Origin: Pseudomonadota bacterium | GTDB taxonomy: Bacteria > Bdellovibrionota_B > Oligoflexia > Silvanigrellales > Silvanigrellaceae | DNA: 34,076 nt | Assembly: GCA_039799905.1 (NCBI GenBank) | Contig: JBDLRP010000007.1 | Location: forward strand, 1 to 34,076 | Direction of reading: 5' to 3' | Shown: piece by piece, positions 4,351 to 33,164 of the stretch | Layout: each line of letters begins with the position of its first letter | How positions within the stretch are numbered: the first letter of the stretch is position 1 | Program-made: the position numbers and the translations under genes | Notes under the pieces: model-generated | Told to the model about the DNA's origin: nothing | The model's database searches: none | What the model saw: the letters and a program-made list of their open reading frames with translations, nothing else

Positions 4351-5340
4351 ATGAGAACCGTCAGTCTTTTCGTGTTTATTTCTGCAAGCTTGAGCGCATG
4401 CGGTGACTCAAAGTACCAATCTGCGACACCCAACAACAAAGCCAAGGGTGCGGCCAATGCCAACGCAGGAACTGAAGACGTGTCGGGACAACTCAAAGAG
4501 ACGTTTGCGGTCGAGTCATCCTCAGGCAAGACAGATATCGTGTGGGTTGTTGATCAGTCGGGCTCGATGTCGACGGAAACCCAGAACGTTCAAAACAATC
4601 TTTCCAATTTCTTCAACTCGCTCAATCAAAAGGTGGACGCCCGATACGCGCTGATTGCCAGCTCGTCCTCAAGCAACAAAATCTCGCTGCCCGCCGCAAG
4701 TGACAAACAACTGCAAATCGAACAGAGCGTTGCGAGTACGAATGCGCTTGAAATTGCTATCAGCACGTTCACACGCGCCGACGTGCCCGAGCAGCCACTC
4801 ATCGATCCGAACAACCCTGCCGCTGGCCGCATCACGAAATATCCAACCCAAGGAGCACTGAGCAATTTCTTCCGTTCCGATGCACTGCCAGTTGTTGTTG
4901 TTGTGACCGACGACAACGCAAGAAAGGTAACCGAACAAAATTTTCTGCAACTCGCAAAAGCAGCAATCGGTAAGGAACCCAAGGTGTATGCATGGCGTGG
5001 GAATAAGTCGCTGCCGGAAATTCCGAACGCACAGTGCAACGTGGCACGCGACGGAATCGCATACGAGAAACTTGCGGAAGCGACCGGTGGCGAGGTTTTT
5101 AATCTTTGTGAACCCGACTGGAGCGCGACCTTCTCCAAACTGACAACCAACATCATTGCGGCAGTCAAGAACTCATTCACAGTTCAGAAAGAAATTAAAT
5201 CGGTCGTCTCGGTGACAATCGACGGACGAAAGCTGGACGCAAACAAGATCACGACCGCGGGCCGGACCATCACTCTGCCTCAGGATGAACTCAGCAAAAG
5301 CCCTAATGGCAAGGTGACCATCACATATGTGCCGAAGTAA
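4351..5340 (+). CDS. von Willebrand factor A (vWA) domain lipoprotein
   Basis: Lipobox LSAC; DIVWVVDQSGSMS MIDAS DxSxS, VVVVTDD, LAEATGGEVF; C-terminal beta-rich domain; GAGGTG RBS. Confidence 0.85.
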   Translation: MRTVSLFVFISASLSACGDSKYQSATPNNKAKGAANANAGTEDVSGQLKETFAVESSSGKTDIVWVVDQSGSMSTETQNVQNNLSNFFNSLNQKVDARYALIASSSSSNKISLPAASDKQLQIEQSVASTNALEIAISTFTRADVPEQPLIDPNNPAAGRITKYPTQGALSNFFRSDALPVVVVVTDDNARKVTEQNFLQLAKAAIGKEPKVYAWRGNKSLPEIPNAQCNVARDGIAYEKLAEATGGEVFNLCEPDWSATFSKLTTNIIAAVKNSFTVQKEIKSVVSVTIDGRKLDANKITTAGRTITLPQDELSKSPNGKVTITYVPK

Positions 5341-5387
5341 AAAAGCCAAGACAACCAATCAAAACGAAAAGCAAATACGAAATAAGT

Positions 5388-5415
5388 TAAAGAAAAATAG
5401 AAAAAAAACCGACAA
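5388..5415 (+). promoter_or_regulatory. Possible sigma28-type promoter, probably giving a leaderless mRNA
   Basis: TAAA-N16-ACCGACAA ending 7 nt before ATG 5423; no Shine-Dalgarno visible. Confidence 0.4.
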
Positions 5416-5422
5416 CGTACAA

Positions 5423-12922: not shown

Positions 12923-14185
12923 TCAGCGGGGACAACTCGCGGCAGACTGACGGCCCACACAGCCAGTAATCAGATTTGAAATATTTTCGCGTTTCGCAGT
13001 GCAGTCAGCCATCACCTGAAATGCACGGCCGCGCAGAGTGGACTCGGTCGAAATTGCAACCGAAACAACACCCGAGTCGCCAGCGTAGGGAACCCACAGC
13101 GTACCTGCGGCTGCATGCGCAAGACCCGCAGCCAATCCTTGAACCGGACTGTGAAACGAAAGCTTTGCTTTGATTTCTTCGGCAGTGAATTCGAACGCGG
13201 GGCTCAGGTAACTGACAGGACTTGGCGCACTGCCAGCAAAAAAAGCTGGAGCTGAGTCAATCGACACACTGCTAAAGGCAATCGATTTCTTTTGCTGCGG
13301 GTCATTCAGACTCGCAGCAAAACCAAGAATGTATTGCTTATTGGCTGCCAGTGCTGTGCCATTGGACTCGGCCTTGCGCCAGATGACGTCAACAGCTCCA
13401 GCTGAACCACAATCATAGATTCGCTCGTGACGGAATTGAACATCGTAACCTGCCGGACGGCCCGGAGGACGAAGGTCTGCAAACCCTGCAGGTAAAACGG
13501 GTGATGGTGTAGGCTTTGCGGCGCCACCGACAACGGGGCCCCGATCGCCTTTGAACCCGTGTTCGCCATTGGAGACAAGATAAGTTCTCATGCGTTCTCG
13601 GACGGCATCGGAAATCGGCTGACAATTGAATTCAAGAGATTTTCCATCCGGCAGAACAATAAAGTAACGACTTGCGAACGCGCCGGCTTCCTTGTTCTTG
13701 GGCAGGAGCAACGTTGCTCCGGTGACGTCCGAAAGAACGGCGTCTTTGCCATTGATCTTTTGAAATCCCCAACCGGATTTCAGCTCGGAGTCGGGATACT
13801 GGAGAGACAACCCGAGGTATTTTTCAACGGGAAAAGAACCGGCCGGCTTGACTTCGGGAACCCGATATCGAGGTTCGTCGATTGTAGACACACTGCGGAA
13901 TTCAACCTTCTGTCCATCGAGACTCTGTGCCGTGGCAGCAAAACCGAGTATGTAAGGAGTTACTGCCTCGCCATTCTCCTTTCTCAAACGCCATACGAAA
14001 TCAAATCCACCGGATTCGTTGCCTTTGGAATCCTTGCACGTGGAAAAGCGTGTGACTTCAAACTGCTGTGTGAAGGCCGCGTCGCCCGTCGACTGAATTC
14101 CCGCATTGAACGTTCGCGGCTTGCACGCCGTGGCCATAAAAGCCGCCAAAACAATCAATCCGCCTGCCTTCATGTTTTTCACCAT
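12923..14185 (-). CDS. Hypothetical lipoprotein with two tandem copies of an unknown domain
   Basis: Lipobox ATAC; repeated C...D(F/V)(V/I)WR...YILGFAA...F.SVS blocks separated by a Pro-rich linker; GGGAG RBS; its stop abuts the S8 start. Confidence 0.75.
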   Translation of the reverse strand: MVKNMKAGGLIVLAAFMATACKPRTFNAGIQSTGDAAFTQQFEVTRFSTCKDSKGNESGGFDFVWRLRKENGEAVTPYILGFAATAQSLDGQKVEFRSVSTIDEPRYRVPEVKPAGSFPVEKYLGLSLQYPDSELKSGWGFQKINGKDAVLSDVTGATLLLPKNKEAGAFASRYFIVLPDGKSLEFNCQPISDAVRERMRTYLVSNGEHGFKGDRGPVVGGAAKPTPSPVLPAGFADLRPPGRPAGYDVQFRHERIYDCGSAGAVDVIWRKAESNGTALAANKQYILGFAASLNDPQQKKSIAFSSVSIDSAPAFFAGSAPSPVSYLSPAFEFTAEEIKAKLSFHSPVQGLAAGLAHAAAGTLWVPYAGDSGVVSVAISTESTLRGRAFQVMADCTAKRENISNLITGCVGRQSAASCPR

Positions 14186-15685: not shown

Positions 15686-15796
15686 GCCCTACAATTATTT
15701 AGACTTGTGATTCCGGATATCTGAATCAAGATAGTTTGCCAGTGCCAAGGAAATGTGTCAGGACGGCTCCCTGTTTGAACCATGGGGAGCCGTCCG

Positions 15797-17020
15797 ATGT
15801 CTGATAAAAAATCTCTCGTTCTCTTGGGCTTTTTTCTTTCCTCCATGTCATCCATGAATGCGTCTGCCAATGCTGTGGCTCCGGCTGTTAACCAGTTTGC
15901 AGACCTTCTCACCGGGCTTTTCGACAGCTCCGCGCAGGCCATCGACGATTCCGAGTACCTCGACGTCACTGTCCGCCATTGCAGCGTCATGGTCACCAAT
16001 CTTCCGACTGATAAAAATAATGGACGATTTCTGGCATTGCGCCAGTCCGTCAGCACAGATTCAAAACCATACCGGGTGCGCATTCTGCGAGTTTTCGCGG
16101 GCGCTTCAGAAGATTCCGTCAGAGTGTCCAGCTATGCTTTGAACGACAACTCCGACATTTCTGAACTTTGCTTCAAACCCGAAGCAGAGCGCATCATCAG
16201 TTTTTCACAGCTTGCAGAAGAGAAATGCACGACTGAATCGCGCCTGAAAAACGGCACCTTCGTGGGCGGCACACTTGGCGACGGATGCCCGAGCATCCGC
16301 GCAGGGGCTGTGCGGATGACGAGCGAACTCACTCTCGATGCCCAAGGTATGACGACTTGGGACCGCGGCTGGACCGCACAAGGGCAACTGGCGTGGGGAC
16401 CAGAGAAAGGCCCCTATAAATTCGAACGCGTCAATAAACAGGATGTTCGACTCGCTCAGCTGGCGGCGTTTTTCTCAGGCCGCTTTTCGAACGCAGAACA
16501 AGTGGCAGCAGATCCAAAAAACTTCATTCCGGTGTCGTATCAGTTCTGTCAGGTCGATACTGCGCAGAATCCGCAGCGTCCTGCAACACGCCTCATGCTT
16601 GCACAGCAAACTGTCAGCACGCCGGCGCGAACAATTCAGCGCAACCGCATGTATGAATTTTTCCGCTCTGAACAGGGAAAGATTTCCATCCGCACCAACC
16701 CATTCGATGAAAGCAAAGTGCCAGTTGATATTTGTCAGCGTCCACTGAATGAAAGAAGGGCGCTTGCCGACGAAGCACTGGCACAACGCGACTCTTGCGT
16801 GTTGAACTTCGACTGGAATGAAGCAGAGCAATCCTTCGTCGGTGGAACTCCTGCAGAAGGTTGCCCAAGCAACTTCCAAGGATCCGTCAAACTGACCATT
16901 GAAGAAACCATCAAGGACGGTGTTATTGCGCCTTGGGAGCGTTGGTTCAACGCGGCGGGAGAACAGGTTGCCGGCGCCAAGGCCGGCCCCTATATCTACA
17001 AAAGAATCATCGGCCAGTGA
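15797..17020 (+). CDS. Secreted protein with two tandem CpcT/CpeT-like (T-type bilin lyase fold) domains
   Basis: Each half shows G.F.(S/N)..Q, (PY)R.R, F.GGT...GCPS...G, W(D/E)R.(W/F)...G..(W/A)G...GPY.(F/Y).R; signal-like N-terminus; start could be 15782. Confidence 0.75.
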   Translation: MSDKKSLVLLGFFLSSMSSMNASANAVAPAVNQFADLLTGLFDSSAQAIDDSEYLDVTVRHCSVMVTNLPTDKNNGRFLALRQSVSTDSKPYRVRILRVFAGASEDSVRVSSYALNDNSDISELCFKPEAERIISFSQLAEEKCTTESRLKNGTFVGGTLGDGCPSIRAGAVRMTSELTLDAQGMTTWDRGWTAQGQLAWGPEKGPYKFERVNKQDVRLAQLAAFFSGRFSNAEQVAADPKNFIPVSYQFCQVDTAQNPQRPATRLMLAQQTVSTPARTIQRNRMYEFFRSEQGKISIRTNPFDESKVPVDICQRPLNERRALADEALAQRDSCVLNFDWNEAEQSFVGGTPAEGCPSNFQGSVKLTIEETIKDGVIAPWERWFNAAGEQVAGAKAGPYIYKRIIGQ

Positions 17021-18771: not shown

Positions 18772-19869
18772 ATGCCGAAGTCAATCAAAACTGTGCGTCT
18801 TCTGCTCTCCGCTGTGAGCGCGCTGATGCTGACGACTGCCTGTGGTGCAAGCAACGGAGAAGGCTCGGGCAGCAGCCTGCAGACTGGCTCCCGGCAAAAC
18901 GGCATGGGAACAGCCCAATCCATCCCACTCGTCAATGACGAAATAACAACAACTATATCCGCTAAAATAAAAGACAAATGTACTGAAATTCATTCCGCAT
19001 CAGTGGCGGAATTGAAGTCCTGTCAGTCGGCGTCTGACGCCTTGGCGCGGGAACTCGGCTTCGACTACATCAGACGATCGGATGGAAACTCGGCTTTTGT
19101 TTTTATGAGCAAGAGACTGCAGTCGTTGCTTTCACAGCCAGAGGTCTCGGATTATTTGAATGAGGTTCAGCGAGCATCTTTGGACGCCGTTTATGCCAAT
19201 CAGAAATTCAACCTTTGGGATTTCACGCTGGCGCACGCAAAAGGAAACGAAGAGGTCGCTCTCGAACGCATTGCCGTTCTCTTTCAGGATGGCGCGCGGA
19301 CCGCAGCACAAAAGAAATTCCTTCTTGTCCAGCAGCATCCGATGGCCTTTGTGCTCGGTCAAACGCTCGAGGTTCTAGAAACAGGGCTCGCACAAGGAAA
19401 GATCACGGCATATCCTTCTTCTGTTCAGCTTCGTAGAACGGCCCACTATCACTACTTTGTTCCACGGTTTCTGGCGCAGCGGCTTAAAAAGACGGGACAT
19501 GGCAGCGCAGCGGCTGCACGCTTGCCTTTTCTGTTCAACTCGCTTTACGAGCTCAGACAAATCCAGAAGTCCCAAAATCCAAATATCGACAGCCATTATA
19601 AGCCTGTCCGGTTCGACGATGATGCAAGTGCGGCGCTGCGTGGTTTTGTCGACAAATGGAATAGCTTCGACGAGCTCTACAGTGATTTGCTCGACCACCT
19701 GACAGCATCCCTTGTTCCGTTCAACACTCAGGGTCAGAGTGACAACCTCGAAGACCTGTATCTCGGCTATGCGGGAGCACTGCATGGCAGCGGGCGTGGT
19801 GGATTGGTGACGTATTCTCAGTTTGTTGGGGAATTTGCCAAAAATCCCGCTCAATTTTTATCAAAGTAA
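18772..19869 (+). CDS. Hypothetical helical lipoprotein
   Basis: Lipobox TTAC; AGGAG RBS; 365-aa ORF 27 nt after the M48 gene; no family recognised. Confidence 0.7.
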   Translation: MPKSIKTVRLLLSAVSALMLTTACGASNGEGSGSSLQTGSRQNGMGTAQSIPLVNDEITTTISAKIKDKCTEIHSASVAELKSCQSASDALARELGFDYIRRSDGNSAFVFMSKRLQSLLSQPEVSDYLNEVQRASLDAVYANQKFNLWDFTLAHAKGNEEVALERIAVLFQDGARTAAQKKFLLVQQHPMAFVLGQTLEVLETGLAQGKITAYPSSVQLRRTAHYHYFVPRFLAQRLKKTGHGSAAAARLPFLFNSLYELRQIQKSQNPNIDSHYKPVRFDDDASAALRGFVDKWNSFDELYSDLLDHLTASLVPFNTQGQSDNLEDLYLGYAGALHGSGRGGLVTYSQFVGEFAKNPAQFLSK

Positions 19870-19912: not shown

Positions 19913-19940
19913 TAAATATTGGCCAATGACCGGCCGATAC
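19913..19940 (+). promoter_or_regulatory. sigma28 (FliA)-type promoter
   Basis: TAAA-N16-GCCGATAC, followed by the GAGGTGAGG RBS and ATG 19959. Confidence 0.6.
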
Positions 19941-19958
19941 GAACCCCGAGGTGAGGCG

Positions 19959-21602
19959 ATGACTGACCTGTTGACAAGAAACAACGACAGCTTTGCAATC
20001 AGACGCTTAATTGCTGCTGGAGCACTCCTGCTCATTGTTGGATGCAGCGCGACCTCCACGTCGCGCTCGCAGAACCAAGGGGCGAATTGCCCAAAATCGC
20101 CCGTCGCTGGAAACGGCAAAAGCGGGCGGGACAACGCGTCATTGAATTTGTCGTTTGGCGGGTCATCCCAGCTGACAGATGACAACGACAGCGGGATTGG
20201 CACGGGTTATTTGGACATCTCAACGAAGAATTTGGCTGGTGAGAAGGAGAGCAGGCGTTGCACGGTGCACTTGCGGCCTATCGACAGCTCAAACTCGGTT
20301 GTCAGGCTTTGGACCGCGGGCCACTGTTTCTTCGACCCGCAAACAGTTGAATTTCAGAATTCAACATACACTGCCCAGATTTATTTGAACGGCGGCTATT
20401 TTTCTGCCGCTGTGGATCTCGAAGGAATTCCGGAACTCGGTAAATTTTCCAAAGCCGTTGTTGCATTTCTTGGTCTTGCGAATATCCCTGAAATCAACAC
20501 GATTGTGGGCGAGACCTTTCAGGCGTTGCCATCAGCGACTGGTCAGAACTGCATTGACGACGGAAATATCTTCAAGGGAAATTTGAGCAACGCGAAATCC
20601 GTTGCATGCTTCGCACGCAGTGAGGTACGCGGTTTCAAAGCAAAACTTTCACTCAGTGAAAAAACATCTCCGCATATGAAAAGGGTTATGGATACCCTTC
20701 GTGCGCGCGAGTCGGCTGCACTTTCAAAACTTGACGCATCCAGCAAAAAGCAGCTTGAGTATTATCAGGCTGCACATTTTGCGGAAGTCCGCCGGCTAGC
20801 CGACCTGCGCAGCCTGGCATTTGCGCTCAACAAAAGAATCTGCGACGTTTACGAAAGCAACAACAAGTCGGAAATTGACCCAGAGCTGTATGATGCGAGT
20901 CTAAAAAAATACGATTCAGTTGCAATGTGTGGCACACAACTCGGACAGACATACCGTGACCTGATTGTAAATCAACTGAGTCAGTCGGGTATGCTTCCCG
21001 AATCGGATTTATCGATGATGAAACAATATTGGGAAGTACCCAGCGGCGGTCAGACCCTCCAGACACTGCGAGCTCGCTCGATGAGCTGCAACGTGACGAA
21101 CATTGCCACCGTCACGCAATCAGCAGATCAACTGACACCCTGCGATATGGGAATTCTTGCTGTGCAGGGTTGGGCTAAATGGGTCGACAATGGCACACAA
21201 CCTGTTTCTGTGTCCGACGGCCTTTACAGTGACAGCCAGTTCGGCTTCAATCCCGAGTCTTATTTCACACTGATTACCAACGCTGCCGAGACGTCGGCAC
21301 AACTCGCCAGCGGAGCACGCGGCAAAGCAAGGGTTATCCCTCTCAACGTCTCTTCGGTCCTAAATTTTGGAACCAAGGTCAGCTCCCAACATGGCAACAC
21401 CATGCTCATCAATTTCGATAGTGCTGCCCAGAGAATTTATCTGTCGAAAGGTGACAGCGGCTCGATGCTCTCGGTGTTTGGATACTTCCCGATGGGACTC
21501 CTCTCGACTGTCGACGGCGAAAAAACAGCGGGAGGCGCAAGCGTCACACCACTGCCGGAAGTGGACAGCGAAGATATCGCTGTTTCAAACGGCGGCTGCT
21601 GA
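19959..21602 (+). CDS. Lipoprotein, trypsin-like serine protease with a large insertion
   Basis: Lipobox IVGC; RCTV...WTAGHC and KGDSGS canonical S1 motifs 378 codons apart. Confidence 0.7.
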   Translation: MTDLLTRNNDSFAIRRLIAAGALLLIVGCSATSTSRSQNQGANCPKSPVAGNGKSGRDNASLNLSFGGSSQLTDDNDSGIGTGYLDISTKNLAGEKESRRCTVHLRPIDSSNSVVRLWTAGHCFFDPQTVEFQNSTYTAQIYLNGGYFSAAVDLEGIPELGKFSKAVVAFLGLANIPEINTIVGETFQALPSATGQNCIDDGNIFKGNLSNAKSVACFARSEVRGFKAKLSLSEKTSPHMKRVMDTLRARESAALSKLDASSKKQLEYYQAAHFAEVRRLADLRSLAFALNKRICDVYESNNKSEIDPELYDASLKKYDSVAMCGTQLGQTYRDLIVNQLSQSGMLPESDLSMMKQYWEVPSGGQTLQTLRARSMSCNVTNIATVTQSADQLTPCDMGILAVQGWAKWVDNGTQPVSVSDGLYSDSQFGFNPESYFTLITNAAETSAQLASGARGKARVIPLNVSSVLNFGTKVSSQHGNTMLINFDSAAQRIYLSKGDSGSMLSVFGYFPMGLLSTVDGEKTAGGASVTPLPEVDSEDIAVSNGGC

Positions 21603-23172: not shown

Positions 23173-24258
23173 TCAAACAAGTGCCAGCCCCATGCCGTGA
23201 CCGGCAGGCAAACCAAGTCTCGCCGACTTGCCATGGTAGGGACTGGTTTTTGTGATCCTCTTCTGCAGAAAAAAAGGCGTATCAAGGTCGCACCATTGAA
23301 TATTGCCTGTTCCGCACACGGCGTGCAGGGAAGCGGTCATGCCAATCTCACTTTCGACCATGCCGCCAATCATCAGCGGTATCGACGCGCGCCTTGCGAT
23401 CTCGGCAATCAACAGCGACTCGCGGATACCGGACTTCATGAATTTCAGATTGATCATGTGCGCACATTTCTCATGGATCACACGAATCGCATCGTTCATA
23501 GTCTTGACAGTTTCATCGGCACAAACCGGAATTGGAAGAGTTTCACTCAGGCGCGACATGCCGGCGAAATCATCTTCCGGCAAGGGTTGTTCAAAGAAGA
23601 GCGGTTGAATTCTTCTTGATATCAGCTCAAAGACAAGCCGCTTTGCAGAATCGACGTGAAACCCCTGATTGCCGTCGAGGCTGATACGCATTTGCGCGCC
23701 TGAAAGTCGCACCACTTCCTGAACGCGCGCCACGTCATCATCAAGGGTCCCGTCACCGACCTTGACCTTCACATAGGAAAACTCGTGATCAGAAAAATGT
23801 TGCCAAAAGCGTGATACGTCTTCGGCCGGAAGACACGGAAGAGTGATGTCGGTGTGTGCACTCTGTAAATTCGCTCTTCCCCAGAGTGCGGCCAATGGAC
23901 AACCCAACTGACGTGCATGCAGGTCCCACAATGCCATTTCGATACCCGTTCGAGCCGATGGGGCAAACGAAAATGCTGGCCAAAGTTCGTTGTGCAACTT
24001 CTCCAAAGCAGCGGCAGGTTGCAAACCGGAGAGCTGATTAGCCATATCTGCCGCTGCCTTCAGGGCGATTTCCTGAGTGTCGCCGGTGAGAACCGGAAAG
24101 GGAGCCGCTTCGCCCAAACCGACTCGGCCGGCGTCGTCCGAACAGCTCAACAGCACATTTGCGACAACTTCCACGCTGCCCTTTGAAATATTGAAAGGCA
24201 TATGCAAAGCGGACTCCAACGACTGAACGGTGAAGGTTGTGATCGGAGACGATTGCAT
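23173..24258 (-). CDS. Dipeptide epimerase (L-Ala-D/L-Glu epimerase-like, enolase superfamily)
   Basis: GLGEAAP, KVKVG, DGNQG, EQP, ADE, INLK, GGMVES, CDLD motifs; GGGAG RBS before MQSS. Confidence 0.88.
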   Translation of the reverse strand: MQSSPITTFTVQSLESALHMPFNISKGSVEVVANVLLSCSDDAGRVGLGEAAPFPVLTGDTQEIALKAAADMANQLSGLQPAAALEKLHNELWPAFSFAPSARTGIEMALWDLHARQLGCPLAALWGRANLQSAHTDITLPCLPAEDVSRFWQHFSDHEFSYVKVKVGDGTLDDDVARVQEVVRLSGAQMRISLDGNQGFHVDSAKRLVFELISRRIQPLFFEQPLPEDDFAGMSRLSETLPIPVCADETVKTMNDAIRVIHEKCAHMINLKFMKSGIRESLLIAEIARRASIPLMIGGMVESEIGMTASLHAVCGTGNIQWCDLDTPFFLQKRITKTSPYHGKSARLGLPAGHGMGLALV

Positions 24259-24362
24259 TGCGCACTCCCGTGTGACTTTTGCAGCATTGTGCCAATAAAT
24301 TCTGACAGAGGAAAGGTGGATTGCAAACGTGCTAAGCTCGAAACTCAGCTGGGAGGCCATTC

Positions 24363-25643
24363 ATGCAGCAGCCGATCTCTTCAGGACGTGAAAAACTCAT
24401 TCTCCTGCTACTTTCAGCAATCCAATTCTCACACGTCTTGGATTTCATGGTGATGATGCCGCTTGGGCCGCAGCTGATGAGAGTCTTCAACATTACGGCC
24501 AGCGAATTTGGCTACATTGTCTCCTCCTACGGCATCAGTTCAGGCATCGCAGGACTGGCTGTCGCTCCGTTCATCGACAAATACGACCGCAAGCTTTTCC
24601 TCAACATCTGCCTTGTCGGCCTGCTGGCCGGAACACTCCTCTGCGCAGTCGCCGAATCAGCCTCCATGCTGATGTTTGCACGCATCATCGCAGGGTTTTT
24701 CGGCGGAGTTCTGGGCGGGCTGGTGAATGCCATCATTTCGGATATTTTTCCGCCCGAACGCAGAGGATTCGCCATCAGCAGAGTGATGCTCTCATTCTCG
24801 ATTGCATCCATCATTGGCGTTCCAGCAGGGCTCGCTTTGGCAAATTCCTACGGCTGGCATATGCCTTTTTTCGTCGTCTCTGCATTGTTGATCATGCTGC
24901 TTATTCTCGCTCATTTTCGCTTCCCGAATCTTACAGCCCACATAGATCAAGGAATAACTATCCGCAGCCGCATCTTGCAGATCAGTCATCTTCTGATTGA
25001 AAAACCTGCGCTCATTGGATTTTTCACAACGGTGTTCATCATCGTTGGTCAGTTCATGGTGATTCCCTATATCAGCCCCTACCTTGTCAAGAATCTCTCG
25101 TTCAGCGAGCAGCAGCTGCCGCTGCTCTACCTTTTCGGAGGTGCGGCGAGTATTTTCACAATGCCGCTAGTCGGCAAGGCAACCGATAAATTTGGTGTCG
25201 ACAAGGTTTTCCCCGTCGGTGTCCTTATATCAATCATTCCGATGTTCACGCTCACGCATCTGACGACACAAAATCCCGTCCTGATACTCTCGACGACGAC
25301 GTTTTTCATGGTCTGCATGGGGGCAAGAATGGTTCCTTATTCCTCGCTGCTGACAACTGTCGTGGAACCCAAAAAACGTGGAGCGTACCTGAGCCTCAAC
25401 GCCTCCGTTCAGTCGCTCGCACAAGGCGGAGCAGCTCTGCTTGCTGCAAGCCTGATTTCCGAAAATTCTGAAAAGCAACTTGTGGGCTACACAACCTCAG
25501 GATGGATTGCGGCTATTTTCAGCCTCATCACAATCGCGCTGGGCTATCAAATTTCAAAATCCGCAGTGCGTTCAGCACAACCAGAAGGCTTGAAAGCACC
25601 ATCGCAGCCGCAGCCCACATCGGAGTCAGCCGACCCATCATAG
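24363..25643 (+). CDS. MFS transporter
   Basis: About 12 hydrophobic segments; DKYDRK motif A, ARIIAG, PPERRG; GGAGG RBS. Confidence 0.92.
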   Translation: MQQPISSGREKLILLLLSAIQFSHVLDFMVMMPLGPQLMRVFNITASEFGYIVSSYGISSGIAGLAVAPFIDKYDRKLFLNICLVGLLAGTLLCAVAESASMLMFARIIAGFFGGVLGGLVNAIISDIFPPERRGFAISRVMLSFSIASIIGVPAGLALANSYGWHMPFFVVSALLIMLLILAHFRFPNLTAHIDQGITIRSRILQISHLLIEKPALIGFFTTVFIIVGQFMVIPYISPYLVKNLSFSEQQLPLLYLFGGAASIFTMPLVGKATDKFGVDKVFPVGVLISIIPMFTLTHLTTQNPVLILSTTTFFMVCMGARMVPYSSLLTTVVEPKKRGAYLSLNASVQSLAQGGAALLAASLISENSEKQLVGYTTSGWIAAIFSLITIALGYQISKSAVRSAQPEGLKAPSQPQPTSESADPS

Positions 25644-27726
25644 CGAGCGGGATCAACAGTACGTTATAACCAAAGGCCCAAAAAAGATTCTGGCGGATAT
25701 TGCGGAACGTCATGCTGGACAATCGCAGCGCGCTGAGAACTCCCGAAAGACCAGTTTCCTTCAGAGTCAATGCAGCTGTCTGACGTGCGGCATCGGTGCC
25801 ACTGCCCATGGCGATACCAACATCTGCGGCAGCCAGCGCCGGAGCATCGTTGATGCCGTCGCCCAACATGGCAATCACACGACCGTCGGCTTTCAGCCGC
25901 TGAATCAGTTCAGCCTTCATTTGCGGAGTCTGCTCACTGTGAAACTCAATACCCAGATCCGCAGCCAACGCGGCCACAGCGCTGTTGTGATCGCCGGATG
26001 CGAGAATTGACTCGACCTTCATGCGCCTGAGGCTGTGGATGACGTCAGCAGCATCAATCCGAGGAGAGTCTTTCAACAGCCACAACGCACAGACCTGACC
26101 GTCAACCGAGCACACAACCTGGGACGCATCGTTAAACAAGGGAAGGACTGTCTTGTCTTTTTCAGATGGCCGTCCGATTCTGATCTCGTTGCTCCCCGTT
26201 GCCGACCGCCAAAGCGCACGAATTCCTTCACCGGCGATTTCGCGAATATCTGTCAGTCCGTCGGGCTGAACCCTGCTTGTTTTAATCTGTTGCAAGTGGT
26301 TCGTAAGAGCGACTGCGGCAGGATGCTGTGAACGCTGTTCCAGATGAAAAACAATATCAGTGAGAAGTTCTTTGGGCAGCGGTAAAAGTCGTTCTTCGAT
26401 GAGCCATTTTTCGTCTGCGACAGTAAGTTGACCTGTCGTCAGAGTGCCTGTTTTATCAAATACAATTGTGCGCACGGATTGCAGTGCCTCCAGCGCTGCG
26501 AGGTCGCGGAAGAGTATTCCAGCCCTCGCCGCCCTGCCGGTTGCGATCATAACTGCAATGGGCGTGGCCAATCCCAAGGCACACGGGCAAGCAACAACCA
26601 ACACCGACACCGCAGCGTTCATACTGTCGGCCAGCTCGGCACCCACAACAAAATTCCAAATCAAAAATGTGATGACGCTCAAAGCAAGAATGATCGGCAC
26701 AAAAACTGCAGAAGCACGGTCGGCAAGACGCTGTATCGGTGCCTTGGACAACTGAGTGCGCTCGACAAAACTGATGATTTCGCCCAAACGCGTTTGCGCC
26801 CCCACCGCACCGACACCGTAGGTCACTGCACCGCTGATATTCAGCGACCCGGCTACGACCGCATCACCAACATTCTTTGCAACAGGAAGACTCTCTCCTG
26901 TAAGCAACGATTCATCCGCTTCGGTCCGCCCGTCAACAATGACTCCGTCTGCTGCAAATCGTTCTCCAGCGCGACAGACGAGACGATCGTCAGGGCGCAC
27001 AAAGCGCAAATCCACACTTTCCAAGACTGACGGATCCGCGGCCGACGCTCTGAGTGCAGTGAACGGCTGTAATTGCATGAGCGCACCGAGTGACGACGTT
27101 GCGCGCCACACCATGCGATGTTCGATGTATTTTCCGACCAAGACAAACGTGACAATAGCCGCAGCAGTCTCAAAATAGACGTATCCAGTTCCCCGCAAGG
27201 CCTGAACGCACGACCAGATGAAGGTAAAACCCGCACCCAGCGAGACAAGTGTGTCCATATTAGCCGTGCGTTGCACCAGCAGTTTTCCGGCTTTGACGAA
27301 AAATTCACGTGCAGGACCCACCAACAGTGCGAAGGTCAATGCCGCTTCGAGCGCAAGAATCCATGCAATGCTTGACCACTCATGAACCATACCGATGACA
27401 ATGACCGGAGTACCTAGAATAAGTGCGTACACGAGACGTCGCTGCGCCGCGAGATGCTCGGAGCGATGACGTTCCTCGAGGGAAAGTCCACGCGACACAG
27501 GCTCTGCCTTAAATCCAAGATTGTTAATCAGCTGAGCGACCGCCATGGGCTCCAGAGGAGTGCGAACGGTTGCAGTCTTGTTGGCGAAATTGACAACAAC
27601 CTGTTCAATGTCATGGTTGTTGCCCAAAGTGCGCTCAATGCGTGAAGCACATCCGCTACAGCTCATTCCCTGAATTGAAAATTCCCTGATCTCAGACATA
27701 TTTGTTTTCATGATAATTCCCGTCAT
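25528..27726 (-). CDS. copA: Copper-translocating P1B-type ATPase
   Basis: GMSCSGC HMA, YFET, TGES, CPC, DKTGT, HP, GDGIND, YN and MxxSS Cu(I) ligands; start may be 27711 or 27699. Confidence 0.92.
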   Translation of the reverse strand: MTGIIMKTNMSEIREFSIQGMSCSGCASRIERTLGNNHDIEQVVVNFANKTATVRTPLEPMAVAQLINNLGFKAEPVSRGLSLEERHRSEHLAAQRRLVYALILGTPVIVIGMVHEWSSIAWILALEAALTFALLVGPAREFFVKAGKLLVQRTANMDTLVSLGAGFTFIWSCVQALRGTGYVYFETAAAIVTFVLVGKYIEHRMVWRATSSLGALMQLQPFTALRASAADPSVLESVDLRFVRPDDRLVCRAGERFAADGVIVDGRTEADESLLTGESLPVAKNVGDAVVAGSLNISGAVTYGVGAVGAQTRLGEIISFVERTQLSKAPIQRLADRASAVFVPIILALSVITFLIWNFVVGAELADSMNAAVSVLVVACPCALGLATPIAVMIATGRAARAGILFRDLAALEALQSVRTIVFDKTGTLTTGQLTVADEKWLIEERLLPLPKELLTDIVFHLEQRSQHPAAVALTNHLQQIKTSRVQPDGLTDIREIAGEGIRALWRSATGSNEIRIGRPSEKDKTVLPLFNDASQVVCSVDGQVCALWLLKDSPRIDAADVIHSLRRMKVESILASGDHNSAVAALAADLGIEFHSEQTPQMKAELIQRLKADGRVIAMLGDGINDAPALAAADVGIAMGSGTDAARQTAALTLKETGLSGVLSALRLSSMTFRNIRQNLFWAFGYNVLLIPLAMMGRLTPMWAAAAMVLSSLLVVLNALRILKFDSPARL

Positions 27727-27909
27727 ATCTTCGCGATGTACCTAGCTCGCGGGTCATAGCACAGTATCGAGCGCATGCAGAACACAGGTTTTCCGTCTTT
27801 CATCCGATCAATGGACATTGCCGGCTGTCTGCTTAACTAAAATCCCGCGACATAAGTGTCCGAAACTAAATATTTAACCAAATAATTTCGGTTATTTATG
27901 TGTAAGCTG

Positions 27910-27936
27910 TAAAATTTCCTCGAATTTGGCCGATAG
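27910..27936 (+). promoter_or_regulatory. sigma28 (FliA)-type promoter for the pilin-like operon
   Basis: TAAA-N15-GCCGATAG, 11/12 match to TAAA-N15-GCCGATAA with canonical spacing. Confidence 0.72.
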
Positions 27937-27981
27937 CCTCATATGGACGTGGGTGACTCTACCGATTTTTGAGGCTGGGAA

Positions 27982-29181
27982 ATGCGCCGTCAGAGACGAA
28001 ACCAAAAAGGTTTTTCAATCGTCGAAGTGATGCTGGGGCTGACCCTGCTCCTGACGGTCTTTGGATTTTCTTTCAAAAACCTGCAGGAACTCCGCACCGG
28101 AATGCAGCGTGTCACGACTTCGGGTCCGCATCTTTTTTTTGAAAGCTTCGCTGTCTCGCGCTTGAAGCTGTATTTTGCAAAGGTATTGCAGTGGAACACA
28201 CATATTTGTCCGGGCAAACCTAAACTCTCTGTATTTGACGCCGCTGAACCGTCTTGTCTCTGCGAAGATGCCGCATATTTTGCCTATGCATCCAACAATG
28301 ACTCGCTCACCGCAGGATACACGGCAGAAGTATCCGGTGATCCAAATGCAGGAATGTCTGACGCGACTCGGAAGACAATAGGAAACAAAACCCTTGGTGC
28401 CGACATGCGCCTCTCGCTCAGCACTTTTGGCATAAAAGACATTGCACCGAGTGGAGAGAGCGGACCATTCAAGACTCTTCTGCAAATTGCAGCTGAAAAA
28501 AGAACTGACTCCAAACAAGCTCCCTGGGGGGCACTGATTCCCTTCCATACCGTTGACGAATGGAACGCAGCTAATCCGTTTTCACGTGAATGGTGCGTCA
28601 AGAGAAAACCTGTGGCTGGCAGTATTGGTGATGAAATGTGCAAAGAATTCGACAGATGCGCGGAAGTCGCCGGCGGGTTGGGTGGCAAGCGTCCGGTCAA
28701 CCAATTGGGTTTTCAGGGAACTGCGGAGAAGAATCTGCGCGGCAAAAAGACATTTTCGATGTGCTTTGTGTTTGCTGGAAACTTGTTCACAAGGTCCGAC
28801 AACAGCAACCTTAACAATCAGTCACTCGGACTAGCAGCGCTCGACAACCCCGCCGTCGTGGGACTGGCGGTGGCCACCGCACGATTTGTCGACAACAGGA
28901 ACCAACAAGAATTGACCTGTAACCAAGCCGCCTTTGAAATGAACAGAAGTGTCAAGGTCAATGTGAATATCTACACCGCGCTCAACGCTGATATGACCGA
29001 CGGAAAAAAACAAACCGCGCAAAAATCTGTTCGTGAAATTACAGGCGAGAAATTGGGAGTTGCCAGTCCCAACTGTTTGGCCCCCAACCGCGGCGGTGAA
29101 AAGGCCGTTAAGGGTGATGCAGTCTGTCTTCAGGACCCAACGTGGATTTACCAATGCAGTCAATCTTGTCTTCTGTTTTAA
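27982..29181 (+). CDS. Large type IV minor pilin-like protein (PilV-like), Cys-rich
   Basis: Class III signal MRRQRRNQKG|FSIVEVMLGLTLLL with Glu5; 399 aa, 12 Cys. Confidence 0.8.
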   Translation: MRRQRRNQKGFSIVEVMLGLTLLLTVFGFSFKNLQELRTGMQRVTTSGPHLFFESFAVSRLKLYFAKVLQWNTHICPGKPKLSVFDAAEPSCLCEDAAYFAYASNNDSLTAGYTAEVSGDPNAGMSDATRKTIGNKTLGADMRLSLSTFGIKDIAPSGESGPFKTLLQIAAEKRTDSKQAPWGALIPFHTVDEWNAANPFSREWCVKRKPVAGSIGDEMCKEFDRCAEVAGGLGGKRPVNQLGFQGTAEKNLRGKKTFSMCFVFAGNLFTRSDNSNLNNQSLGLAALDNPAVVGLAVATARFVDNRNQQELTCNQAAFEMNRSVKVNVNIYTALNADMTDGKKQTAQKSVREITGEKLGVASPNCLAPNRGGEKAVKGDAVCLQDPTWIYQCSQSCLLF

Positions 29182-29199: not shown

Positions 29200-31587
29200 A
29201 TGCTGCGACGAAAAAATAAAATTGCCAAGGGCCAAAGTGGAAATGCTACAACCACGGGGCTGATGATCCTGTCGGGTGTGGCCGCTGCAACGGCGGCGGT
29301 GTTGACCGTGAACCAAGGTCTCAGAAAAAGCCGCGACCTTGGCGACCAAACAGATCTTGAGCGCCGCCTCAATGAATCAGCACTGCAGACGGTCACCCAA
29401 CTCATCACCAACGGAGCTCTCCACTTCAACGAGAAGTGCAACAGACTCGAGCCGACTCAGGAATTTGATTTGACTGGAAAGTTGGTCAACGAAAATTACG
29501 TGTTTCCGGCAGCGGATGCAAACGGAGCCGAGAGTTGCGGAAGCATTCAGGCAAAAAGAAAAGCCATCGACTGCGGCAGTGAAGTGGCAAACGCCCAATG
29601 GCTGTATGAAAACAATGCGCAAGAAGGCCGCGAGATCGTCTCGGTTTGCGTCACTTCCACCGAGAAAAAAGCTGGAGTGCTTGTCAGCTCCAAGAAAATC
29701 GTCAAGGTCTCATTCGAGAAATACGTCAATGAAGAGGACGATGCCAAGAACCTGCGAAGAATCGCGCTTGCCAAGTCACAGCCACAGGGCCGCAACTTGC
29801 GCGGCGCATTCTATTCTTCGCTCAACGGAAAAATATCTCTTGGTTTAAAAGAGGGAAACGCAGGTCTGCTGGGCAAACATGGTGCGGCAGACTCGTGTTT
29901 TTATATGCGACCCATCACTTCGGAACAAAAACGGGGCAAGCTTTCTTCTAAAAATCTTGCCTTCAATGCGCGCGCCACCAATGCGAAATACACCCTATCC
30001 GAACTTGAGCCGCGTCCGGATGGCCCGAACAGCGATGAATATGGCGAGACACATGACCTCACCACTCAGGCTCCCGAGGGCTATGAAGTTCTGGCGGTAT
30101 ATCGGAACAACCTTTTGGATAAGAAATACAAGTCGAATTTCCGAGGCAACCGACCATCGTCCGACAATTGGAACAGCAATGCATTGGCTTGGACGCCGCC
30201 CGACGTGAGCGCGAGTGGCGGCAGAAGCCGCTACACCGCAGAGATTCTCAGTGTCGACAAATACCACCAGGTTCCCGGAAAACCGCAGCCGCATTTTATC
30301 GGAGTCATGCCCAACGTTCCAAACGGGCCGCAGTTCCAATACTTTCTGGCCGCGAAAGTTGGAACTTCACAACACCTTCACGACCGCAAAACTTTCAACC
30401 CGGCGTTCTTTGGAGAATTCAAACAGGGCTGTGTGACTTCCACGGGCGACAGCAAGGCGACGTTCTGCACCCGCGTCGACATTCCGCTCAAGACTTACAA
30501 GGCGACCTTTAACAACAAGTGCACTAGTAAAAAACAAGATTTGAAGGCAGCAAAATACAACGAAGCACGCGATGTCAAATACGCAAACCGCGCTGTGCTG
30601 ACCAGCTGCAACAAGGAATGGGTCGATACCGTAGAAAAACTTTTGAAGGAGGAGGAGTCGAAGCTGACCGGCTTGCAAAAGCCTGAAGACGCGACCACTG
30701 CAGCAATGGCTTTTTCCGCGCTGGAAGTGGACGATGACTTCATCCAAAAGAAAGGAAAATGGGCGGGACATCCCATCCGCAACGCATACGATTCTTTCAA
30801 ATCCACAATCGAAAAGGATGGCGGGAAAGTCGTTGATGACTACACGGTCGAGTATGTGGGTGACCAAGACCAGGTCACGATCACCACTGAAACCGACGCA
30901 GACGGAAACACGACCGAGAAAATTGAAATTGTTTACAAAGCCAAAGTGATTAGCCATGATATCCCGATGATCCAGGAACTCCAGGGGGTTGCCGAAGAGG
31001 AAAAACACGAGGCAAAAAGCTGTGCTTATTTTAAATACTATGATCCCACCAACCCCAAGACCTGCTCGATCTCGTTCGTAACAAAAAACGACGCGGGTTT
31101 CGTGTGCCGCAACAACGACGGCTGCTTCGATGAGCTTACCAAGATCCGTATGGCAGACGGCTCCGATCGTCTTGTGACACAGCTGCGAAAAGGCGATTTC
31201 GTATACAATCCCGTCACGAAAATGCCGGCCAAGATCACCAAACTGACTATTGGTCCGGAATTGAAGCCGCTCCTTCATGTGACTGTCGGCGGTTCTACGG
31301 TGCGCGTGACAGACTCGCACCCGTTCATGACCACACGTGGATGGGTTGCAGCGAAGAATCTGCGTTCAACGGATAAAATTCTTGGACGAGACGGAAAATA
31401 TCTTGGAATTCAGAAGGTGGAGATTGGCGCTTCTGGACATACGGTTGCCAACCTCGCGCTGGAGGGCCCCGCAAACCAACCAGAACTTCATTATGTTTTG
31501 GCTGACGGTGTCGTCACAGGCGACCTCGTCATTCAGAACATGCTTGAACAAAGGGCCGCGCTCACGGACGAAGGTCGGGGTAAATAA
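29200..31587 (+). CDS. Giant PilX-like prepilin with C-terminal Hint domain
   Basis: Basic leader ...GQSG|NATTTGLMILSGVAAATAAVL lacking Glu5 (PilX/GspK-like); flanked by two prepilins; Hint domain at aa 642-775; AGGAG RBS. Confidence 0.75.
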   Translation: MLRRKNKIAKGQSGNATTTGLMILSGVAAATAAVLTVNQGLRKSRDLGDQTDLERRLNESALQTVTQLITNGALHFNEKCNRLEPTQEFDLTGKLVNENYVFPAADANGAESCGSIQAKRKAIDCGSEVANAQWLYENNAQEGREIVSVCVTSTEKKAGVLVSSKKIVKVSFEKYVNEEDDAKNLRRIALAKSQPQGRNLRGAFYSSLNGKISLGLKEGNAGLLGKHGAADSCFYMRPITSEQKRGKLSSKNLAFNARATNAKYTLSELEPRPDGPNSDEYGETHDLTTQAPEGYEVLAVYRNNLLDKKYKSNFRGNRPSSDNWNSNALAWTPPDVSASGGRSRYTAEILSVDKYHQVPGKPQPHFIGVMPNVPNGPQFQYFLAAKVGTSQHLHDRKTFNPAFFGEFKQGCVTSTGDSKATFCTRVDIPLKTYKATFNNKCTSKKQDLKAAKYNEARDVKYANRAVLTSCNKEWVDTVEKLLKEEESKLTGLQKPEDATTAAMAFSALEVDDDFIQKKGKWAGHPIRNAYDSFKSTIEKDGGKVVDDYTVEYVGDQDQVTITTETDADGNTTEKIEIVYKAKVISHDIPMIQELQGVAEEEKHEAKSCAYFKYYDPTNPKTCSISFVTKNDAGFVCRNNDGCFDELTKIRMADGSDRLVTQLRKGDFVYNPVTKMPAKITKLTIGPELKPLLHVTVGGSTVRVTDSHPFMTTRGWVAAKNLRSTDKILGRDGKYLGIQKVEIGASGHTVANLALEGPANQPELHYVLADGVVTGDLVIQNMLEQRAALTDEGRGK
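31123..31524 (+). other. Hint (Hedgehog/intein) autoprocessing domain, no endonuclease
   Basis: Block A G|CFDELTKIRMADGS...LRKGDFV, block B VTDSHPF (TxxH), GWVAAKNL, block F/G VANLAL...HYVLADGVVTGD. Confidence 0.9.
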
Positions 31588-31592
31588 AAGTC

Positions 31593-32459
31593 ATGAAGTC
31601 GCTTGGCTCGGAACGAGGTTTGACCCTTGCCGAACTTCTGATCACAGTCTCACTGACGAGCATTGCGTCATTGGTTGGCGCGATGCTGCTGAGTGACTAC
31701 ATGGCGACCGCACGCACATTGCGTGTTCAGGGAGATGCCAACATTGAACTTGTCTCTCTCTTGAAGGGAATCACCCGTGATTTTCAGACTTCGAACACAA
31801 CCCGACGAGCTTGCCTGTTAGACAGAATTGCCGATGACAAACCAGAAGTTCTGGCCGCGTATAACTGCTTTTCAGACCAGCAGCGGAGTGTTTTTGCAAC
31901 GACCGATGGAATCGGCTTCAATATCGATGCAACCGGGCGACCCCAGTCTGCCTACGTCAACACCTGTGTCACTTTTAAAAATGAAGAACTGCCCGTCGGA
32001 AAAGGCGGAAGGCACGCAGCGCCGCCTTTTCCAAACAATCTCAATTGGGGCGGAGCGAGCAAAATATGTCCCGCAGAATGCCCCGCCGGACAGCGTCCGG
32101 TTGTTAAGTTTCTTGATAAGACAAAGGGCTTGGTCAGTGCAAAACAGGTACCCAAAGCATCCACGACAAACAGCACGCTGGAAGTTTGGGGTGCTGTGAT
32201 CTGCGGTTCGGAATTTGAAGATCTCAGGCAGTTACAGGACCTCAAGAGCCGACAATTTCTTGCTCAATCAATCAACGTGCTGGCGTTTGTGGCACGCGGA
32301 CGATTCGACGTGAGATTTCCCTCTGTGCCAGATCCTGCAGACGCAAAAAAGAAAATCAAACAAAGTTATGTCTGGCTGACTGGCGGAATTGTTCTCGACT
32401 TTCTTGACTCACAAGAGATGGCAATTTTCCGCTGCAAACCAAATGACCCGACTTGCTGA
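31593..32459 (+). CDS. Type IV minor pilin-like protein (PilW-like), Cys-rich
   Basis: MKSLGSERG|LTLAELLITVSL with Glu5, amphipathic helix ending ITRDF; 8 Cys; 5 nt after the previous stop. Confidence 0.8.
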   Translation: MKSLGSERGLTLAELLITVSLTSIASLVGAMLLSDYMATARTLRVQGDANIELVSLLKGITRDFQTSNTTRRACLLDRIADDKPEVLAAYNCFSDQQRSVFATTDGIGFNIDATGRPQSAYVNTCVTFKNEELPVGKGGRHAAPPFPNNLNWGGASKICPAECPAGQRPVVKFLDKTKGLVSAKQVPKASTTNSTLEVWGAVICGSEFEDLRQLQDLKSRQFLAQSINVLAFVARGRFDVRFPSVPDPADAKKKIKQSYVWLTGGIVLDFLDSQEMAIFRCKPNDPTC

Positions 32460-32471
32460 ACGCCGGACGAC

Positions 32472-33164
32472 TCATTTGATTTGCTGATTAATCCAACCGT
32501 CGATGGAACGGGCCGTAAGAACGTCACCATGACCTACCAAAAATTTCTCGTATCCGGCTGACCTGAGTTCAATAATTTGCTCTAAGACCTTTTTGTTGTT
32601 GACGTTCAGCGGATGAAAGTTCGGCTTCCATGCAGGAGGCAGACCGAGCACTCCACCCATGATCAGATCACCGACGCATACTGAGCGATTCTCCATCAGC
32701 ACACAGACGGATGCTTCTGTGTGCCCGCCCGTGACAATTACCTCGCCCTCGACTCCAAACTCGCTCAGGTCAAGTGAACCTGCGACGGGATAATCAATCC
32801 GAACGGGCTGAAACTCTGATTTAACTGCCTGCCGCATCACCCGCTTCACGAATGGCAGAGAACTTGCAATTTTCATTATCGCAGAAGCATCTTCCTGACG
32901 TCCCTCCGACAAAAACGGCTGCGCCTTTTCGGATGCAATGACCGGAACTCCCTCGGCTTGAAGGAACGAGGCGCAGCCGCAGTGATCGAAGTGTGCATGC
33001 GTGAGGACGACCGCCGACAAACTCCTGATCTGCACTCCGGACCTGCCGAGAAATTGAGCTAGAAAAGGCCAGTCTCCGCAGCAGCCACAGTCAACAAGAA
33101 TCGTTTTTTTATCTTTAACCAAAAAGGCATTCGAGAGCGAAAGCGGAATTGTTTCGACCTTCAT
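32472..33164 (-). CDS. MBL-fold metallo-hydrolase
   Basis: ILVDCG, LTHAHFDHCG (HxHxDH), GHT, GD, GHG motifs. Confidence 0.92.
   Translation of the reverse strand: MKVETIPLSLSNAFLVKDKKTILVDCGCCGDWPFLAQFLGRSGVQIRSLSAVVLTHAHFDHCGCASFLQAEGVPVIASEKAQPFLSEGRQEDASAIMKIASSLPFVKRVMRQAVKSEFQPVRIDYPVAGSLDLSEFGVEGEVIVTGGHTEASVCVLMENRSVCVGDLIMGGVLGLPPAWKPNFHPLNVNNKKVLEQIIELRSAGYEKFLVGHGDVLTARSIDGWINQQIK

Follow-up and report, generated by a model that had tools for sequence, protein, structure and literature searches.

What does a Hint domain do at the end of a pilin? The question is raised by a locus from an uncultured organism of freshwater type, deposited as a Pseudomonadota bacterium and placed by GTDB in the Oligoflexia; Silvanigrellaceae (assembly GCA_039799905.1, contig JBDLRP010000007.1). 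We analysed positions 1–34,076 of this contig, a stretch of 34,076 nucleotides that we call the window. An open reading frame (ORF) on its forward strand, at 29200..31587, encodes a 795-residue protein with a C-terminal Hint domain, hereafter the Hint pilin, which appears from its sequence, an AlphaFold2 model and fold alignment to be a modular pilin of the PilX/K type. An earlier note had described it as a PilX-like pilin fused to a Hint domain that does not splice. Our analysis suggests that the Hint pilin probably cuts off its own C-terminal domain. We believe that this would happen by N-terminal autocleavage, in which a thioester at the start of the Hint domain is resolved by water, and we give this reading a probability of about 0.5.

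Identity of the C-terminal domain

The landmarks of the C-terminal region were as the earlier note had placed them. The Hint domain, assigned by family, fold and conservation, covers 134 residues from Cys642 to Asp775 (31123..31524). It contains the first cysteine (C1) at the Gly641|Cys642 junction, a TDSH motif at residues 704–707 that supplies Thr704 and His707 of block B (B:7 and B:10), Glu687, Asn751 (F:4), His764 (F:13) and, at the end of a VVTGD motif (771–775), the Gly774-Asp775 pair (G:6 and G:7). Leu776 opens a 20-residue tail, and 12 cysteines lie upstream of C642.

Several comparisons identify this domain. Pfam matches to PT-HINT (E 6.3e-6) and to Vint (E 4.4e-4) fell narrowly short of their curated cut-offs, and a sequence match in the PDB was 2LWY, a bacterial intein-like (BIL) domain (E 3.3e-7). 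The AlphaFold2 model of the Hint pilin has a mean predicted local distance difference test (pLDDT) score of 82. The Foldseek matches listed for it were all Hint folds, headed by Tetrahymena BIL2, with a best E of 1e-9, and VIA-align gave a Z of 18.6 with a root-mean-square deviation of 1.4 Å over 125 aligned residues. The nearest Atlas structures were similar-sized proteins of Myxococcota and Pseudomonadota, with a template modelling (TM) score of 0.88 over 157 residues. Judged by the model, then, the domain is a real member of the Hint fold. In the VIA alignments, model residue 775 is paired with the final residue of the inteins 1am2, 2imz, 2cw8, 1dq3 and 6riz, so Asp775 should occupy the position of the terminal Asn (G:7).

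The gene is neither a chance ORF nor a pseudogene, as it has 46 homologues and is present in 11 of 12 genomes of the same genus. A 317-residue ORF on the opposite strand within the gene (30367..31320) was treated as a shadow frame.

Conservation of the predicted processing site

A search with the Hint region returned 46 proteins of 437–1392 residues. Mean identity among the 43 closest homologues was 68% in the Hint domain and 38–42% in the cargo that precedes it. The tail (31525..31587, including the stop codon) falls into two parts in the model and in the homologues: a helix start with the pattern L-x-[LI]-Q-x-x-L (residues 776–782), which is 88% identical, and a variable end past residue 782 (30%). 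The pre-junction segment, residues 606–641 (31015..31122), holds C608, C622 and C636, ends in R-x3-G and has a mean identity of 54%. By sequence, the Hint domain is therefore the most conserved large part of the protein, compared with about 40% for the cargo. When residues 14–640 alone were used as the query, 27 proteins were found, all with Hint; three matches in one genome (G006) that contain the N-terminal part only stop at contig ends.

A profile search for the subtype gave 377 clusters at E<=1e-30, of which the best 150 were analysed; 147 of these had a Hint domain. Because the 147 representatives were chosen by their likeness to this Hint domain, the conservation reported from them is inflated. 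The N-terminal catalytic set is intact in them, in keeping with the earlier claim of an intact N-S shift site: Gly at –1 and C1 are each present in 145/147, and Thr or Ser at B:7 and His707 at B:10 are present in all. Cys1, the B:7 Thr and the B:10 His are the residues that make the thioester (PMC4031507). Among the 145 representatives with a junction, Gly is at –1 in 145 and Arg at –5 in 112, and in 144 of 145 the Hint domain and tail have no further Cys, which leaves Cys1 free, as had been proposed.

The canonical C-terminal splicing set is missing. Splicing requires a nucleophile at +1 and cyclisation of the G:7 residue, where Asp or Gln sometimes stands in for Asn (PMC4031507). An HN-[CST] ending was found in 0/147, which bears out the earlier view that no canonical splicing end is present; in 145/147 the penultimate position holds Gly in place of His, and the +1 residue is Leu in 126/147 and otherwise Tyr, Phe, His or Trp, with a nucleophile in none. 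The earlier note had viewed the ending as one from which the splicing residues had simply been lost. That part of the claim did not hold up, as Asp775 (146/147), Gln779 (145/147), Asn751 (147/147) and His764 (144/147) are near-invariant and thus point to a dedicated active-site arrangement; Gly774 (145/147) and Glu687 (140/147) are retained as well. The GD-x3-Q ending is conserved, as the earlier note had asked, and the Hint fusion as a whole is real, conserved and apparently under strong selection. The tail after Asp is short and variable (median 19 residues, range 9–55) and contains no ligand-binding module.

The N-termini of the 147 representatives were PilX-like in 74, had a lipobox in 20, were of other kinds in 41 and were partial in 12. 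The PilX-like rule is a simple one: it also picks out 51 of 1362 control ORFs, and of the 74, two are evidently lipoproteins and 11 belong to the close family. A prepilin, lipoprotein or signal-type N-terminus is found on most of the full-length carriers.

Probable self-removal of the Hint domain and competing readings

Based on these data, we propose a model in which the Hint pilin, as a Glu5-less subunit of the PilX/K type, would cap a complex of three pilins at the tip of the type IVa pilus and carry a large grafted cargo, as its signal, fold and gene context suggest. After export, the Gly641-Cys642 bond would be converted into a thioester through Cys1, Thr704 and His707, as expected from the intact residues and established Hint chemistry, and this thioester would be attacked by water. 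Asp775, Gln779, Asn751 and His764 would place or activate the nucleophile, or restrain the reaction until folding or assembly. The 154-residue Hint cap would be freed, and the mature tip pilin would end in R-x3-G and would probably be disulfide-stapled. The Hint domain may thus be a portable, self-removing maturation cap common to many exported proteins of the lineage, and most likely behaves as a self-cleaving BIL does.

The wide variety of the carriers (PilX-like, lipobox and other) suits a reaction that does not depend on the cargo. There is also a precedent for C-terminal pilin domains that remove themselves: Dataset S1 of PMC8179133 has four rows of pilin+S74 architectures, with 37 proteins in all. 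Hydrolysis agrees with the diversity of the cargo, with so short a tail and with the S74 case. If only hydrolysis proves true, the Hint domain would represent a new maturation step of the pilus tip and possibly a self-cleaving tag.

Several points weigh against self-removal. The cleavage is a prediction from sequence. It is not obvious why plain hydrolysis should need invariance at Asp, Gln and the F:13 His, nor is the benefit of cleavage apparent. F:4 is Asn instead of the usual Asp (PMC4031507), and the C143D substitution blocks autoprocessing of Hedgehog (PMC12054796); by sequence register, Asp775 stands at about the position of C143. The match of the N-terminal region to the pilin fold is weak (Z<=5.5). 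Last, versions without Hint that end at the cut site, which would have spoken for a cap that can be dispensed with, were absent among 34 loci from three other cargo families, in a survey of the loci returned by the search; three of the 34 ran off the locus or contig. At one of the surveyed loci (L100, 1470–3972), cargo and Hint are split by one in-frame TAA into 601 and 232 residues, which may be the sign of a pseudogene or a split gene, or of faulty assembly. Another (L118, 1452–2676) encodes a distant PilX-like paralogue that has a Cys/Gly-rich end and no Hint.

The Asn at F:4 and the Asp at G:7, both unusual, could slow the N-S shift. This would suit a protein that works uncleaved, with the Hint domain staying on as a structural or binding domain or as a latent switch. 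However, G-1|C1 and TxxH are kept in at least 145/147 across unrelated cargo. It is difficult to account for this unless the bond undergoes chemistry, and we consider a permanently attached Hint domain quite improbable.

A second possibility is that the thioester is resolved by something other than water. At the pilus tip, a latent thioester could react with an amine or hydroxyl group on a target surface, on a partner pilin or on the cell envelope. The anchored pilin would then be covalently joined to that molecule and the Hint domain would depart, with Asp775 as a possible acyl relay or base. We regard this as possible, though we would not expect it. In its favour, the part that is anchored by its N-terminus would retain the acyl group, and anchoring or export signals of the kinds described above are present in most full-length carriers. 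The near-invariant Asp775, Gln779, Asn751, His764 and Glu687 and the Arg at –5 suggest more than hydrolysis. Tetrahymena BIL2, the top Foldseek match, is reported to couple through isopeptide bonds to lysines on other proteins (PMC8616854), and the acyl relay residue of Hedgehog lies at this end of the fold too (PMC12054796). The occurrence of up to 10 matches per genome with differing cargo is also what interchangeable tips would lead one to expect.

On the other hand, thioesters in water tend to hydrolyse, and the acceptor molecule is hypothetical. A conserved acid was not found at the equivalent of Hedgehog D46, placed by eye and without coordinates: Glu687 is Hint residue 46 by count, and the by-eye register falls on the variable Ile684 or Lys681. 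Glu687 also occurs in BIL4 and BIL2 and so is not special to the subtype, and past residue 782 there is no conserved region that could bind an acceptor. The thioester-domain pilus adhesins SfbI and Cpa of Gram-positive bacteria offer a functional analogue for this reading only; their thioester joins Cys and Gln side chains in a fold unrelated to Hint, and they belong to sortase pili and do not cleave themselves.

In its boldest form, this idea would have the type IVa pilus tips and surface lipoproteins of Oligoflexia act as single-use covalent harpoons armed with a Hint thioester. The GD-x3-Q Hint would be a transacylase, the Asp at the intein-Asn position its acyl relay, and an interchangeable PilX-type tip would be welded to its target or partner. 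We offer this proposal tentatively and consider it doubtful. If ligation were true, it would amount to covalent adhesion by a type IV pilus; the harpoon would be a new Hint mechanism and, to our knowledge, the first covalent adhesion chemistry on such a pilus.

The domain's C-terminal end raises a third possibility, Asp-type splicing or C-terminal cleavage. Asp775 could cyclise and the amine of Leu776 attack the thioester as in A-type BILs, which would either join the helix to Gly641 or leave both ends cut. Asp775 lies at G:7, where Asp or Gln cyclises in some inteins (PMC4031507), the F:13 His is retained as noted, residues 776–782 are the best conserved of the tail, and reviews describe BIL ligation without a +1 nucleophile (PMC5874633, PMC4031507). 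Against this, the penultimate His has given way to Gly in nearly all representatives, and six relatives aligned in 2008 keep GD-x3-Q yet, by eye, have no F:13 His (PMC2362128). The tail past residue 782 varies in a way that would be odd for a ligated product, and the conserved helix is more simply part of the Hint domain. We therefore think that ligation or cleavage at this end is unlikely.

Finally, the earlier note had included a lipid among the possible ligands. In Hedgehog-style anchoring, a sterol, hopanoid or other lipid would be esterified to Gly641. The G|CF junction, the TxxH motif, the C-terminal position and the lack of a terminal Asn are shared with the Hint-SRR region of Hedgehog, and the fold match to 1AT0 has a Z of 17.7. 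However, a region the size of the sterol recognition region (SRR) is missing (about 97 residues in SHH, PMC7906309, versus the 20-residue tail), and C143 is replaced. Lipid ligation is further disfavoured because the distal tail is so variable and many carriers are already anchored as lipoproteins or pilins, and we believe it to be very improbable. A Hedgehog (Hog) assignment of the domain itself was rejected for its Asp at the C143 register, its 20-residue tail and its lack of Cys and SRR.

The pilin-like part and the cargo

If the Hint domain is removed, what remains? The N-terminus of the Hint pilin has the class III signal anatomy of the PilX/K type. A basic, hydrophilic leader ending in Gly14 (29200..29241) carries the predicted prepilin-peptidase site, and it is followed by alpha-1N, a stretch of 21 uncharged residues without Glu5 (29242..29304) that is assigned from the sequence and overlaps a long helix (20–70) in the model. 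Among the homologues, 44/45 keep Gly14 ahead of a run of about 21 uncharged residues, and 0/44 have Glu5. The +1 residue is atypical (Asn here; Ser in 25 and Asn in 8 of the 45 homologues), and because of this PilD processing can only be inferred.

A pilin-like alpha/beta head appears to follow at about residues 27–219 (29278..29856). In two models, the best non-Hint fold matches of this region by VIA were EpsI, XcpV, GspI, PilA and TT_C0855 (Z 4.7–5.5). For the N-terminal model, the top four VIA matches were pilins (Z 4.7–5.4), with an unrelated protein next at 3.6, and Foldseek returned nothing at E<=0.001. No prepilin or PilX family of Pfam or NCBIfam matched the Hint pilin or its 45 homologues. 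The designation as a PilX-like pilin is thus supported in part: the class III signal, the lack of Glu5 and the minor-pilin gene context agree with it, the fold match is weak, and a family match is absent.

The Cys-rich cargo, at about residues 220–628 (29857..31083), gave no family match and no usable Atlas, Foldseek or VIA match, which is not proof of a new fold. Each of the 12 cysteines upstream of C642 is kept in 43–46 of 46 homologues, and the count is even in 40/43 homologues.

The closest known counterparts of this arrangement are the modular and K/PilX pilins, represented by PilB and PilC of S. sanguinis and by GspK (PMC8179133, PMC10191384). They share with the Hint pilin the class III signal, the lack of Glu5, a large grafted module and the company of two Glu5 minor pilins, and tip complexes are capped by a subunit without Glu5 (PMC10191384). 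In contrast, the modules of the characterised modular pilins bind non-covalently, and none in the relevant passages of these two papers has a Hint domain. The 2021 survey by Raynaud lists pilin+PT-HINT (IPR012902-PF07591) for one protein among 264 architectures (PMC8179133). As the Hint pilin has no IPR012902-type motif, that survey would probably have missed it.

The three-pilin cassette and its genome

The Hint pilin gene lies between two genes for Glu5-containing prepilins, at distances of 18 and 5 nucleotides, all on the forward strand. The first cassette gene (27982..29181) encodes a 399-residue minor pilin with a class III signal (G|FSIVE) and a Pfam N_methyl match above the cut-off. The third (31593..32459) encodes a 288-residue minor pilin with the signal G|LTLAE and an N_methyl match under the cut-off (E 0.0056). 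The genome also encodes the type IVa pilus machine (PilB, PilT, PilC, PilM, a PilQ-like protein, a PilA-like pilin and a prepilin peptidase), although several NCBIfam scores for its pilus and secretion genes are below curated cut-offs. The pilus-tip context put forward in the earlier note is consistent with these findings.

A separate type II secretion operon and a separate Tad-like locus are also present. A role in type II secretion is disfavoured because that operon encodes its own GspG-K, and a role with the Tad-like locus is unsupported. As the three-pilin cassette was the only other prepilin cluster found in scans of the genome, the Hint pilin best fits, on gene content, a component of the type IVa pilus tip. 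A search for the PilY1 family was uninformative, as it gave 0/104 genomes over the cut-off but also 0/14 controls. The Hint domain of the Hint pilin was the sole one found in this genome.

The gene order is conserved among relatives. Homologues of the upstream pilin lie directly 5' of the Hint pilin at seven loci (L004, L005, L007, L008, L009, L010 and L012), the downstream pilin adjoins it in 7/8 same-genus genomes that have a match, and the three-pilin order was seen again in metagenome-assembled genomes of the Silvanigrellaceae/Oligoflexia type. Extra Hint-pilin paralogues without neighbouring pilins occur in relatives at L006 (6156–8459), L011 (6141–8456) and L003 (6027–8471).

In one metatranscriptome run, taken from six listed, near-identical contigs covered much of the first two cassette genes, and one contig bridged their junction. 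This lends weak support to transcription of these two genes, as it comes from contigs of one run, which may stem from DNA. In the same run the genes at 24000–28031 were uncovered except for one short foreign match; the lack of cover proves nothing. Promoter and terminator scans gave counts at chance level (4 versus 3.3; 7 versus 7.4).

The genes that flank the cassette (23173–27726 and 32472–33164) encode Enolase-family, MFS, heavy-metal P-type ATPase and metallo-beta-lactamase-fold proteins; they are linked to the cassette in relatives, in varying order.

Distribution and known relatives of the GD-x3-Q subtype

A related Hint domain was found in 73/104 genomes of the phylum (E<=1e-6, with at most 10 matches per genome), and the weaker matches include divergent forms. 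Among paralogues, the pilin head and Hint are common and the middle differs. In other genera, 13/22 pilin-like Hint ORFs have a prepilin within three genes (10 by pattern and 3 by eye); the pattern for pilin neighbours missed 5/28 loci. Named species with members of the subtype are Oligoflexus tunisiensis (P0172) and Pseudobacteriovorax antillogorgiicola (P0179). A phage search gave weak intein matches only.

Two known modules, a tip pilin of the modular kind and a BIL-type Hint domain, are thus joined in a lineage-wide, conserved way that we did not find described, within a large Hint subtype whose invariant Asp, Gln, Asn and His set is unexplained and for which the matches included no dedicated Pfam or NCBIfam model. 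The literature search found neither a characterised Hint-bearing type IV pilin nor the Oligoflexia expansion, although subscription papers such as Amitai 2003, Dassa 2004 and Dori-Bachash 2009 may already describe the subtype. The earlier statement that no characterised pilin has this architecture agrees with these searches but needs the qualification that the subtype was aligned in 2008 and that a pilin with PF07591 was listed in 2021.

The GD-x3-Q subtype itself is not new, to judge from the sequences aligned by Burglin in 2008. Additional file 16 of that study (PMC2362128) contains six bacterial Hint proteins with the same ending, including MXAN_6253, STIAU_1829 and plu1731, and the study credits an earlier sighting of the subgroup to Dassa and Pietrokovski. 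As in the Hint pilin, a C-terminal Hint domain is attached to exported proteins, with G-x3-G-D-x3-Q in 6/6, Asn at F:4 in 6/6 and G-x-E in 5/6; these features were drawn by eye from the alignment and are not Burglin's own definition. The six differ from the Hint pilin in that they have another N-terminal region, described as shared among them with two conserved Cys and with no prepilin signal reported, no F:13 His, Gly at –1 in 3/6 and a longer tail in 5/6. The parts of that paper covered here report no function for the subgroup.

The subtype may also coincide with the C-type BILs of Dori-Bachash 2009. Members of that family are reportedly capable of N-terminal self-cleavage in vitro. Both groups have Hint on secreted proteins of related bacteria. 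Bd2400, a C-type BIL, reportedly carries PKD and PPS-1 domains, not a pilin head, and no PPS-1 profile turned up in our general Pfam and NCBIfam scans. Two scans of metagenome contigs with bd2400 primers gave 0 hits.

Other Hint classes were compared and rejected. The A-type BIL 2LWY of C. thermocellum and Tetrahymena BUBL BIL2 (6Y75, 6TMM) are the best sequence and structure matches; 2LWY has Asn at F:4, and both have the Glu of the G-P-E position. However, A-type BILs end in His-Asn (PMC7765530), and the subtype ends in Gly-Asp and a short helix without C-terminal cargo; assignment to A-type BIL/PT-HINT was rejected, as the terminal His-Asn is replaced by Gly-Asp in 145–146/147. A class 1 intein would have His at G:6, Asn, Gln or Asp at G:7 and Cys, Ser or Thr at +1, where Gly-Asp-Leu is present. 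B-type BILs have Cys, Ser or Thr as a conserved residue of the C-terminal end, with no His-Asn before it (PMC9185962); the Hint pilin has Leu at +1, and PF13403 was weak in 3/46 homologues. Vint was rejected because it requires VWA and Vwaint, the Hint pilin has no VWA, and PF14623 scored 20.5 bits against a cut-off of 27.

How the GD-ending groups relate to one another was not resolved in a quick tree of 46 Hint rows, in which P0199, P0200, P0207 and L066 stood in for the Burglin proteins. The rule used for extraction left out two entries, L034 and P0195, and deep nodes were poorly resolved. With block G removed, 9/10 HN-ending domains formed a separate clade in the quick tree (Shimodaira–Hasegawa-like approximate likelihood ratio test, SH-aLRT, 98).

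Several relatives outside the window deserve mention. At locus L092 (5605–9566), two PilX-like Hint paralogues, nearly identical at their N-termini, stand in tandem. Secreted proteins of about 260 residues in other genera (L032, 2250–3017; L033, 2492–3274; L034, 2797–3618) have a divergent Hint ending in GD-x-W-Q, and in the last of these the Cys1 pattern was unmatched. A family of lipoproteins of about 345 residues, with the same Hint at the end, occurs in 10 genomes of one family (L026, 3922–4947, and L122–L131). A Pseudoalteromonas protein (L066, 3984–5546) has a GD-x3-Q Hint and neighbours annotated as PKD-domain, 'internalin' and GEVED proteins. At L027, L076, L082, L084, L086 and L090, a protein of 280–340 residues with a single N-terminal hydrophobic segment was seen by eye, often beside PilX-like Hint genes of other Oligoflexia; these proteins may be homologous.

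Other genes of the window

The remainder of the window contains adjoining genes for an AhpC-type peroxiredoxin and an AhpF-type, thioredoxin-domain disulfide reductase (726–2969), an ordinary arrangement, and a gene for a VWA-domain protein followed by an overlapping 580-residue ORF without a Pfam match (4351–7069). Four other ORFs (3076–4197, 12923–14185, 18772–19869 and 19926–21602) also lack a Pfam match. A 412-residue protein (15782–17020) contains two CpeT/CpcT (PF06206) stretches in this non-cyanobacterial genome; the family is known from cyanobacterial bilin lyases.

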